The translations under genes and the position numbers were made by a program. A DNA stretch of 64,000 nt, taken from contig MFTH01000015.1 in NCBI GenBank assembly GCA_001786765.1, forward strand, positions 1,548 through 65,547, written 5' to 3'. Under the pieces are notes generated by a model. The model did not search any database. It was not told the origin of the DNA and saw nothing but the letters and a program-made list of their open reading frames with translations. The DNA is from Candidatus Nomurabacteria bacterium RIFCSPHIGHO2_01_FULL_37_25 (lineage in GTDB: Bacteria; Patescibacteriota; Minisyncoccia; Phycocordibacterales; UBA9973). Below are positions 35,097 to 35,847 of this stretch, one piece after another; within the stretch, counting starts at the first letter, position 1; each line of letters begins with the position of its first letter.

Positions 35097-35142
35097 ACAA
35101 GTGAGCGTGGAATAATCACGGCTCACTTGTGTGAATGATGCG

Positions 35143-35751
35143 TTACTTAAAACGGAGGGCGGGACTGCCGGGGAAGTAGCCGTGATCGGCTATCCAACTC
35201 CAGCCTACCACGACCTCGCCACCGCGCTCGTGGAGATACGGTACATGCAGGCCGCCCCGGCGGTCCTGCACGACCGAACCCCAGAGAAAGACCTCCTTGC
35301 CCGCAAACAACTTGCGGAACACGGCGATACCCTTGGCTTGAATGGCAAGCCCATCCTGTAAGTTCAGGCAAGTACCGATAGCATTGTCTTTCTTCAGGCG
35401 GTCGTAGATGGTGTTGTTGCCAACCATCCCCCCACGCTTCTGGTCGTGGTGGAGCCACTGCTCCACGTCGGTCTGGAGGTCGTATTCGACAGGACCCGAG
35501 CACTCCAGCTCGGGATGCTCCAACTTCCTGAACCATGCGGGGTAAGAGGTCGGCTTGACGACCCTGTCCACAAGAATAAGGAAGTCCAGTGGGGGATCGG
35601 GGGGCTTCGGCGTTGCCCCGATCAGAAGCTTTTCGCAATGAAGACAGTATTCTCCTGGAATCACCACGCCCCAGTCTTCCTTAAGATTAATGTCTTTCCC
35701 CACAACCACCGTCGTCATTGCGTGTTTGCATGTTTCTGTTTTTTTTGCCAT
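35143..35751 (-). CDS. hypothetical protein within a high-GC foreign segment
   Basis: GGAGG SD 5 nt upstream of the ATG; around 60% GC versus about 33% around it; codon usage differs from neighbours; hairpins flank both ends. Confidence 0.45.
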   Translation of the reverse strand: MAKKTETCKHAMTTVVVGKDINLKEDWGVVIPGEYCLHCEKLLIGATPKPPDPPLDFLILVDRVVKPTSYPAWFRKLEHPELECSGPVEYDLQTDVEQWLHHDQKRGGMVGNNTIYDRLKKDNAIGTCLNLQDGLAIQAKGIAVFRKLFAGKEVFLWGSVVQDRRGGLHVPYLHERGGEVVVGWSWIADHGYFPGSPALRFK

Positions 35752-35847
35752 AACTCCTCCATAAAGAACTAAAGAGTTTGCTAAATTGCAAAACCCCTTC
35801 CTAAAAACTTAGGAAGGGGTTGATTTCGAAAAAATATTTACAAATAA

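Follow-up and report, generated by a model that had tools for sequence, protein, structure and literature searches.

A GC-rich island in a Nomurabacteria genome as a probable orphaned target gene of a diversity-generating retroelement

The GC-rich island and its gene

We analysed a 64-kb stretch, here called the window, of contig MFTH01000015.1 from Candidatus Nomurabacteria bacterium RIFCSPHIGHO2_01_FULL_37_25, in which a short island rich in guanine and cytosine (GC) holds a single gene. In a diversity-generating retroelement (DGR), a reverse transcriptase (RT) acting with Avd copies the RNA of a template repeat (TR) with errors at adenines, and the resulting complementary DNA overwrites the variable repeat (VR) of a target gene. 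The gene of the island is very probably the target, or variable protein (VP), gene of a Patescibacteria-type DGR that has lost its retroelement, leaving the VR frozen in a gene that has evolved under purifying selection.

GC content is about 0.55-0.60 at 35095-35760 and about 0.35 elsewhere in the window. In 200-bp steps it climbs from 0.30-0.41 to 0.545-0.60 across 35000-35700 and is back to 0.37 by 35700-35900, and the only 1-kb bin of the 64 kb above 0.43 is 35001-36000 (0.512), all others lying at 0.28-0.43. A sequence-only reading of this DNA had pointed to the compositional jump, to a minus-strand open reading frame (ORF) of 202 amino acids with a Shine-Dalgarno sequence, to long alternative ORFs rich in Arg, Pro and Gly, to hairpins on both sides, and to a copy of an element resembling a miniature inverted-repeat transposable element (MITE) cut off at the island edge. 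Sliding GC at both scales, the ORF listing (with such alternative frames as 35147..35638, minus strand), folding against shuffled sequences and alignment with 6249-6394 bore out each of these observations; what that reading did not see was that the ORF is a DGR target gene. The features of the locus are as follows.

35143..35751, minus strand: 202-residue ORF, the GC island itself, very probably an orphaned DGR target (VP) gene (ORF listing; homology to DGR targets)
35754..35760, minus strand: Shine-Dalgarno sequence GGAGGAG, 2 nt before the ATG of the ORF (read directly from the sequence)
35590..35751, minus strand: N-terminal module, residues 1-54, containing Cys and His, lineage-specific (family alignments)
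35146..35589, minus strand: conserved C-terminal domain, residues 55-202, common to the whole family (family alignments; AlphaFold2 model)
35146..35273, minus strand: VR-homologous segment, the last ~43 codons, matching the variable repeat of intact cassettes (alignment to the TR of locus L008)
35088..35142, minus strand: remnant of the spacer between VR and TR, made up of the 3' arm of hairpin H2, the terminator hairpin H3 (35095-35132) and a T-run (alignment with cassettes; fold)
34936..35094, minus strand: truncated MITE-like repeat copy, fused to the terminator T-run; it marks where the cassette breaks off, with no TR, avd or RT past this point (repeat families D5, I3, I4, I9 and I13; alignment with 6249-6394)
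35792..35821, minus strand: terminator hairpin of the upstream Trp_repressor-family gene (35848-36246, minus strand), outside the cassette and the second of the bounding hairpins (fold; gene context)

The two hairpins are far more stable than shuffled sequences: H3 has a dG of -25.8 kcal/mol (z = -6.8), and the hairpin on the other side, which is followed by UUUUGCAAUUU, has a dG of -21 kcal/mol (z = -5.2). The MITE-like copy stops exactly where the island starts. The full copy at 6249-6394 has 34-nt inverted ends (I9), of which the left terminal inverted repeat is missing from the copy at the island, so that only the right end is kept. Genes around the island carry Pterin_4a, Trp_repressor, HTH, LUD_dom and Peptidase_M1 domains.

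GC at the first, second and third codon positions of the ORF (GC1, GC2 and GC3) is 0.62, 0.38 and 0.69, and neighbouring genes have about 0.27-0.39 G+C at third positions. Outside the VR, the core of the gene gives pairwise dN/dS ratios of 0.10-0.31 against ten relatives, values that span the whole divergence without setting apart the period after retroelement loss; the ORF is therefore a genuine protein-coding gene. The long alternative ORFs that come with high GC, and an in-phase antisense frame with few stops, might suggest that the GC-rich DNA chiefly encodes a structured RNA or an overlapping antisense gene, with the 202-residue ORF as a by-product. That is vanishingly improbable: the annotated frame keeps dN/dS below 0.31 and shows the low GC2 and high GC3 of real coding sequence, the antisense frame has 1-3 stops in most members of the family (the window copy included), and Rfam gave no match at the gathering score, its sub-threshold noise falling only outside the ORF. 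Rfam and tRNA scans of the window as a whole likewise returned nothing at gathering score.

Nor is the island an artefact of assembly, as the sequence-only reading had allowed. The ORF product and OGI86806.1, annotated as a hypothetical protein in Candidatus Nomurabacteria bacterium RIFCSPLOWO2_01_FULL_36_16, are 100% identical, and an exact look-up found the same protein, with the same neighbours on both sides, on 20 contigs, of which 13 fall in the 50-200 kb class; the contigs come from NCBI, ENA MEGAHIT, ANAN16 and Logan assemblies. Flanking sequence in two of the assemblies departs from the NCBI record by 0.2-0.7%, at strain-level single-nucleotide polymorphisms; these two therefore represent independent strains and not copies of one assembly. 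Mis-assembly or contamination could account for the compositional jump, and some assemblies do break beside the island, inside the MITE-like element (L075 and L076), but the identical gene and both of its junctions recur in the 20 contigs across different assemblers and samples, and the 3' junction is a cassette-derived terminator fused to a host MITE. We consider the chimera refuted and leave it practically no weight.

An empty site was not seen; contigs with the neighbouring Pterin_4a gene all carry the ORF or end inside the MITE. In one 922-bp contig (L007:1-141; ENA ERZ27254842 k141_2318314), an inverted fragment of the Trp_repressor-family gene, 141 nt long, abuts the VP gene near the terminator hairpin, a junction that is probably a fold-back assembly artefact at the palindrome.

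The protein family and its intact cassettes

What the gene is became clear from its relatives. In three loci, residues 161-201 had an additional, partial tblastn match a few hundred bp 3' of the gene, and nucleotide alignment showed that in intact loci the last ~127-129 bp of the VP gene, the VR, is repeated ~420 bp downstream as a TR. In these first three loci the VR/TR pairs are 122-129 bp long and 22 of 24, 18 of 19 and 16 of 18 mismatches fall at TR adenines; in nine further metagenome loci the figures run from 14/14 to 24/33, and the adenine-specific pattern is present in at least 12 loci overall. Beside the TR lie a 121-residue ORF on the opposite strand, which matches Pfam bAvd (PF22296; 44.1 bits, cutoff 40), and a 351-residue reverse transcriptase (RVT_1, 88 bits); both genes were mapped in L008, L014, L030, L032, L034, L040, L041 and L049. 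The RT carries LGNLTSQ, which fits [I/L]GxxxSQ, a motif that we take to be the hallmark of DGR RTs. Adenine-confined VR/TR mismatches, together with bAvd and RVT_1 next to the TR, identify the family, as judged from sequence, as the variable protein of a Patescibacteria DGR.

Intact cassettes run in the order VP (with the VR at its end), H1, H2/H3, promoter-like TTGTTATACT, leader, TR, bAvd (opposite strand) and RT. Hairpin H1 (GGGGCACTGTGGTCTTTTTGACACTTTGCCC) follows the VP stop codon and is conserved in every intact cassette. In the long hairpin H2, the 3' arm overlaps the 5' arm of the terminator H3 (…CGCATCATTCACACACAAGTGAGC…GCTCACTTGTTTTT), an arrangement that could be a terminator/antiterminator switch, and ~200 nt of conserved RNA leader separate the promoter-like sequence from the TR. 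The VR-TR spacer of ~410 nt is conserved across cassettes (L014:6463-6872, and the same region of L008, L034 and L041), H2 being a 26-bp hairpin within it; Rfam gave no match in this spacer and found nothing in an intact cassette.

Two observations concern where cassettes sit. One complete cassette (VP, TR, bAvd and RT) lies in a ribosomal protein operon, in the gap between the L5 and S14 genes (L069:3515-6017; JGI Ga0265292_1000035). In L008, two GC-rich stretches (0.55-0.61) just upstream of the VP gene, at 4195-4834, have a tRNA-like look and are overlapped by spurious ORFs, which hints that this cassette may have been inserted next to tRNAs.

The family is large and confined to one part of the bacterial tree as far as its sources are named. 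We found 155 homologues with 50-74% identity over the C-terminal ~75% of the protein, and an exhaustive profile search extended these to 1067 cluster representatives at 50% identity; all named sources are Patescibacteria. Fifteen loci lie in GTDB species genomes, namely metagenome-assembled genomes (MAGs) of Nomurabacteria, Zambryskibacteria, Paceibacterota, Moraniibacteriota and 'Saccharibacteria', with two exceptions in labelling: a MAG unclassified beyond 'bacterium', and a 2.7-kb contig that is labelled Gammaproteobacteria and has flanks of 0.35 GC. No synteny is shared among the 16 family loci found by tblastn.

Alignments divide the proteins into N-termini made of several unrelated modules, a Pro-rich linker and the conserved C-terminal ~148 residues. 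The N-module of the window copy is unique in the family; it contains C8, H10, C36, H38 and C39, a set of residues compatible with possible zinc binding, and ends in the Pro-rich linker PKPPDPP. Another member has an N-terminal ClpX-type C4 zinc finger (PF06689, 63.9 bits), and the assortment of modules shows that they are freely exchanged within the family. Some long members have three matched VP-domain stretches (among P0121, 792 residues; P0122, 658; and P0162, 292).

The window ORF matched nothing in Pfam and PHROGs scans, and a profile search against PDB sequences gave 0 matches at E<=10. An AlphaFold2 run with 23 sequences was poor (pLDDT 55), so a C-terminal alignment of 107 sequences was used instead, giving a confident model of the C-terminal domain, with a pLDDT of 88.9 and a pTM of 0.84. 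The modelled domain has four short N-terminal strands, three helices and a C-terminal strand set encoded by the VR; Foldseek found no match to it at E<=0.001 in PDB or BFVD.

The window copy and its missing retroelement

Over query residues 39-202 and 48-201, the window ORF is 63-66% identical (tblastn) to the VPs of L008 and L014. Aligned with the L008 TR, the substituted positions of the window VR are the AAC/AAT positions of the template, where the alignment reads GAC, CGG, GGC, CAT, CGC, GGC, AGT, GAT and CAC. The window VR, on this comparison, appears to keep the footprint of past diversification, and it has one extra codon relative to all family TRs seen.

Neither of the other DGR parts that we searched for by sequence was found in the 64 kb. 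A tblastn search with the L008 RT gave noise (E >= 0.3), and blastn-short with the window VR and three family TRs matched the VR alone; the repeat finder reported nothing at 35143-35275. Among the ORFs of 33500-37500, which comprise the VP gene, neighbours of housekeeping type and short overlapping ORFs, there is no bAvd-RT-like pair beside the VP gene, although no avd query was run on the window. A degenerate-pattern scan of metagenomes for a cognate TR gave 0 matches but also missed the VR itself.

The cis elements of the cassette have decayed. Of the spacer, the window retains just CGCATCATTCACACAAGTGAGCCGTGATTATTCCACGCTCACTTGTGTTTTTTT (35088-35142), that is, the 3' arm of H2 and H3, and its sequence CGCATCATTCACACAAGTGAGC...GCTCACTTGTGTTTTTTT has its counterpart ~95-150 nt after the stop codon in cassettes that are intact or only recently orphaned. 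The window has lost H1 and the 5' arm of H2, as have L047 and L020, and the terminator T-run leads straight into the truncated MITE. The 3' end of the VR, CCCGCCCTCCGTTTTAAG, still resembles the family consensus CCCGCTCTCCGCTTCAGCAAG, which is like an initiation of mutagenic homing (IMH) sequence, but the H1 that should come after it is deleted.

Other members are caught at other points. The orphans L011, L012, L015, L033, L044 and L046 retain the VR-TR spacer up to differing breakpoints: after H3 in L012, in the promoter region in L033 and L011, in the leader in L015 and L046, and at the start of the TR in L044. These differences among TR-less members imply that orphans arise by the decay of complete cassettes. 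L021 (6792-8283) is an intermediate stage of decay: its TR is kept, with 15/15 VR/TR mismatches at adenines, and an unrelated 442-residue ORF stands in the place of avd and RT.

An active target should differ in its VR between samples, and the opposite was found. All 20 contigs share one VR, as do three other members of the cluster; a fourth has a frameshift. This variant (P0268), on a 3.8-kb ENA contig, is frameshifted from residue ~163, inside the VR (window positions ~35146-35270), and the orphan gene may be beginning to decay in some strains.

We propose that in the intact DGR, retrohoming would diversify the C-terminal beta-hairpin surface of a small binding protein. In the ancestor of the window copy, one deletion would have taken everything beyond the H3 terminator, ending in the T-run of the MITE and perhaps exploiting microhomology between T-runs, and a second would have taken H1 and half of H2. 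What was left behind would be a monocistronic gene with its own Shine-Dalgarno sequence and terminator and a frozen VR allele, and this gene has evolved under purifying selection; its product may still act in ligand binding.

Several points weigh against the interpretation of the gene as an orphan. The window itself holds no defining DGR part, and the assignment comes through homology to the targets of intact cassettes. The window VR has a codon more than any family TR seen. The contrast in GC3 between intact and orphaned copies, given below, was drawn without phylogenetic correction. Finally, our search covered the 64-kb window, and an RT and TR acting in trans could lie elsewhere in the genome.

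The last point amounts to a distinct explanation, in which the gene is still an active remote target whose VR is diversified in trans by an RT/Avd/TR unit elsewhere in the Nomurabacteria genome. Remote, non-adjacent targets are documented for other DGRs (PMC5758913), the search spanned 64 kb of this genome, and in a related locus (L019) an adenine-free, GC-rich VR within an otherwise host-like gene fits such refreshing in trans. We nevertheless judge this unlikely for the window copy. Its VR does not vary across 20 contigs from several samples and three more members of the cluster, the VR-proximal hairpin H1 that every intact cassette keeps is deleted, the VR differs from family TRs by the one-codon indel, and adenine at its third positions has risen to 0.07, compared with 0.00-0.05 in TR-linked copies. 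An orphaned target with a frozen VR remains the reading that we carry forward.

Base composition and comparison with known systems

High GC is a property of the target gene wherever it still lies beside the retroelement. Of 38 loci, 33 have a VP gene whose GC is more than 0.10 above that of its flanks (median difference 0.18), and the flanks, at 0.30-0.51 across the 38, are all low in GC and Patescibacteria-like save three at 0.48-0.51. In six complete cassettes, GC3 is 0.76-0.84 in VP, 0.30-0.38 in avd and 0.35-0.46 in RT, and the VR-TR spacer has a GC of 0.37-0.43. The contrast recurs in three cassettes whose RTs are 68-73% identical and whose VP is a distant homologue (hhalign probability 97.6%): VP GC3 is 0.71-0.79 in hosts of 0.36, 0.55 and 0.40 GC. 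One of these three is the L069 cassette of the ribosomal protein operon. GC-richness is thus a trait of the VP family and not the mark of a high-GC donor.

Substitution patterns at synonymous sites lead to the same conclusion. Most cassette pairs differ at 17-42% of fourfold degenerate sites in the VP core and at 26-46% in the RT (9% and 3%, respectively, in the near-identical pair L032/L041), and despite this turnover GC at these sites is ~0.8 in VP, compared with ~0.4 in RT. The composition has therefore been maintained, and was not inherited from a recent high-GC donor.

The sequence-only reading had offered acquisition from a high-GC host or phage as a source of the island, which would then be an ordinary gene, recently transferred, whose GC is an unameliorated donor signature. 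A sharp compositional boundary, a lack of synteny across family loci and a truncated MITE at the island edge would all be expected of such a transfer. We find it very unlikely all the same: no homologue sits in a high-GC context in any of the 38 loci, no relative was found in IMG/VR, and the GTDB hits are Patescibacteria MAGs, bar the unclassified MAG and the 'Gammaproteobacteria' contig with its low-GC flanks. Inside single cassettes, moreover, RT and avd are AT-rich and host-like while VP is GC-rich, and the fourfold-site GC of VP has held at ~0.8 through the turnover just described. The idea of foreign DNA survives in a looser form, as a horizontally scattered cassette of mobile origin without synteny among the 16 loci; the high-GC donor does not.

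The composition seems to depend on the retroelement. Median GC3 is 0.85 in TR-linked copies (n = 11) and 0.64 in the 21 copies for which >=700 bp on the downstream side are available and contain no TR (Mann-Whitney p = 0.001, kinship ignored). Within the subfamily that has the N-module AYNLGLKAVPNF, GC3 is 0.84 in L012, 0.56 in L019 and 0.26 in L066. The target, it seems, stays GC-rich for as long as it has its retroelement and loses this composition afterwards. GC3 of the window copy is 0.69 over the whole gene, 0.76 for the core and 0.52 for the N-module, as would suit an orphan that has partly relaxed (0.69-0.76, compared with ~0.85 when DGR-linked).

L019 (5851-6450) is a peculiar case. 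Third positions of its VR contain no adenine and are rich in G and C (A 0.00, C 0.58), and hairpin H1 comes after this VR. Elsewhere in the gene the composition is that of the host (third-position A 0.21, T 0.35), and the TR is absent within 6 kb. It could be a remote target refreshed in trans, or the product of replacement of the 3' end by recombination.

As a tentative generalization, which we hold with less than even confidence, the target gene alone may be kept at ~0.57-0.62 GC (GC3 0.71-0.90) in the Patescibacteria DGR clade, in hosts of 0.29-0.55 GC and with RT and Avd much lower in GC and closer to the host, and may relax towards the host after retroelement loss, under a synonymous-site constraint or GC-biased conversion tied to target status. 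Candidate causes are a nucleic-acid-level need for retrohoming in AT-rich genomes and recombination-driven biased conversion among cassettes.

Four other accounts of the composition were rejected. Adenine mutagenesis fails because A and T are equally depleted at third positions (~0.08 each), and translational selection because the ribosomal protein genes flanking the L069 cassette have a GC3 of 0.19-0.36, compared with 0.74 for its VP. GC-richness is not a general DGR property: the target of a crAss-like phage resembles its RT, with a GC3 of ~0.2, and a Hankyphage-like DGR is even in composition throughout, with no target GC excess. A conserved overlapping antisense gene is excluded by the antisense stops noted above.

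For the window, the outcome is that a 'hypothetical protein' in a compositional island can be annotated as a fossil DGR target, with mis-assembly and a high-GC donor set aside. More broadly, DGR diversification is now linked to a large Patescibacteria family (>1000 representatives at 50% identity) for which neither a Pfam domain nor a matching fold was found. Where enough flanking sequence is present, about two thirds of its members have kept the gene but no longer have the retroelement, which suggests that DGR-evolved binders are domesticated as fixed alleles. A GC-rich target gene in AT-rich cassettes and genomes offers a simple marker for DGR targets and their orphans in genomes of the candidate phyla radiation (CPR). 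If the GC-richness is maintained by a DGR-linked process, it would point to a hitherto unknown requirement of retrohoming in the Patescibacteria DGR clade, and the island in the window would be a partly ameliorated fossil, usable as a clock of DGR loss. The orphaned VP gene itself adds a member to an already known type of system; what stands out beyond that is the target-specific GC-richness of CPR cassettes.

The closest known systems are the DGRs of Patescibacteria/CPR, described as 'clade 2' (Roux et al. 2021, PMC8144416) and in a CPR set (Wu et al. 2017, PMC5758913), whose targets are small and without transmembrane or other recognisable domains (PMC5758913, PMC8144416). Like these, the intact relatives of the window gene are small targets without such domains, accompanied by the canonical parts (a C-terminal VR, an adenine-specific TR, bAvd and RT), and one cassette of the family lies among ribosomal protein genes, as remarked for the CPR set (PMC5758913). 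The window copy differs in that no TR or RT was found with it and the VR-proximal hairpin is lost. GC-rich targets, and an excess of target GC over that of the cassette's own RT and Avd and of the host, are mentioned in neither paper (PMC5758913, PMC8144416).

With the DGR of Bordetella phage BPP-1 (mtd-avd-TR-brt), the family shares the logic of mutagenic retrohoming, AAC-rich TR codons, a GC-rich, IMH-like 3' end of the VR and a hairpin just after the VR (H1 in intact relatives). Its genes run in a different order, from VP across a ~410-nt spacer to TR, then avd on the opposite strand and finally RT, and the element belongs to cells and not to phages. The usual scaffold of DGR variable regions is the C-type lectin fold (Mtd, TvpA, AvpA and TaqVP); at the thresholds given above, the PDB sequence search and Foldseek detected no similarity of the ~200-residue target to Mtd or other proteins of this fold.

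Remote DGR targets, such as the TvpA paralogues of Treponema denticola, and degenerate DGRs share with the window a VR-bearing gene away from an RT. Remote targets, however, match a TR of the same genome at all non-A positions, whereas no TR was found in the 64 kb and the cis elements there have decayed; the window gene therefore looks like a fossil and not a remote target. Genomic islets of horizontal transfer resemble the locus in their sharp GC discontinuity, border repeat and patchy distribution, but here the composition is not that of a donor genome: a single gene of the cassette shows it, the others being AT-rich.

Further repeats lie in the window. Members of the MITE-like family are at 6249-6394, 57852-57916, 34936-35094 and 38350-38384, the copy adjoining the island having, besides its missing end, an internal insertion of ~47 bp. 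Unrelated to the island are an 88-nt GC-rich palindromic repeat (965-1052 and 1454-1541), a ~130-nt inverted pair 18 kb apart (26093-26222 and 44576-44702) and a 45-nt hairpin repeat (10403-10447 and 40833-40877).

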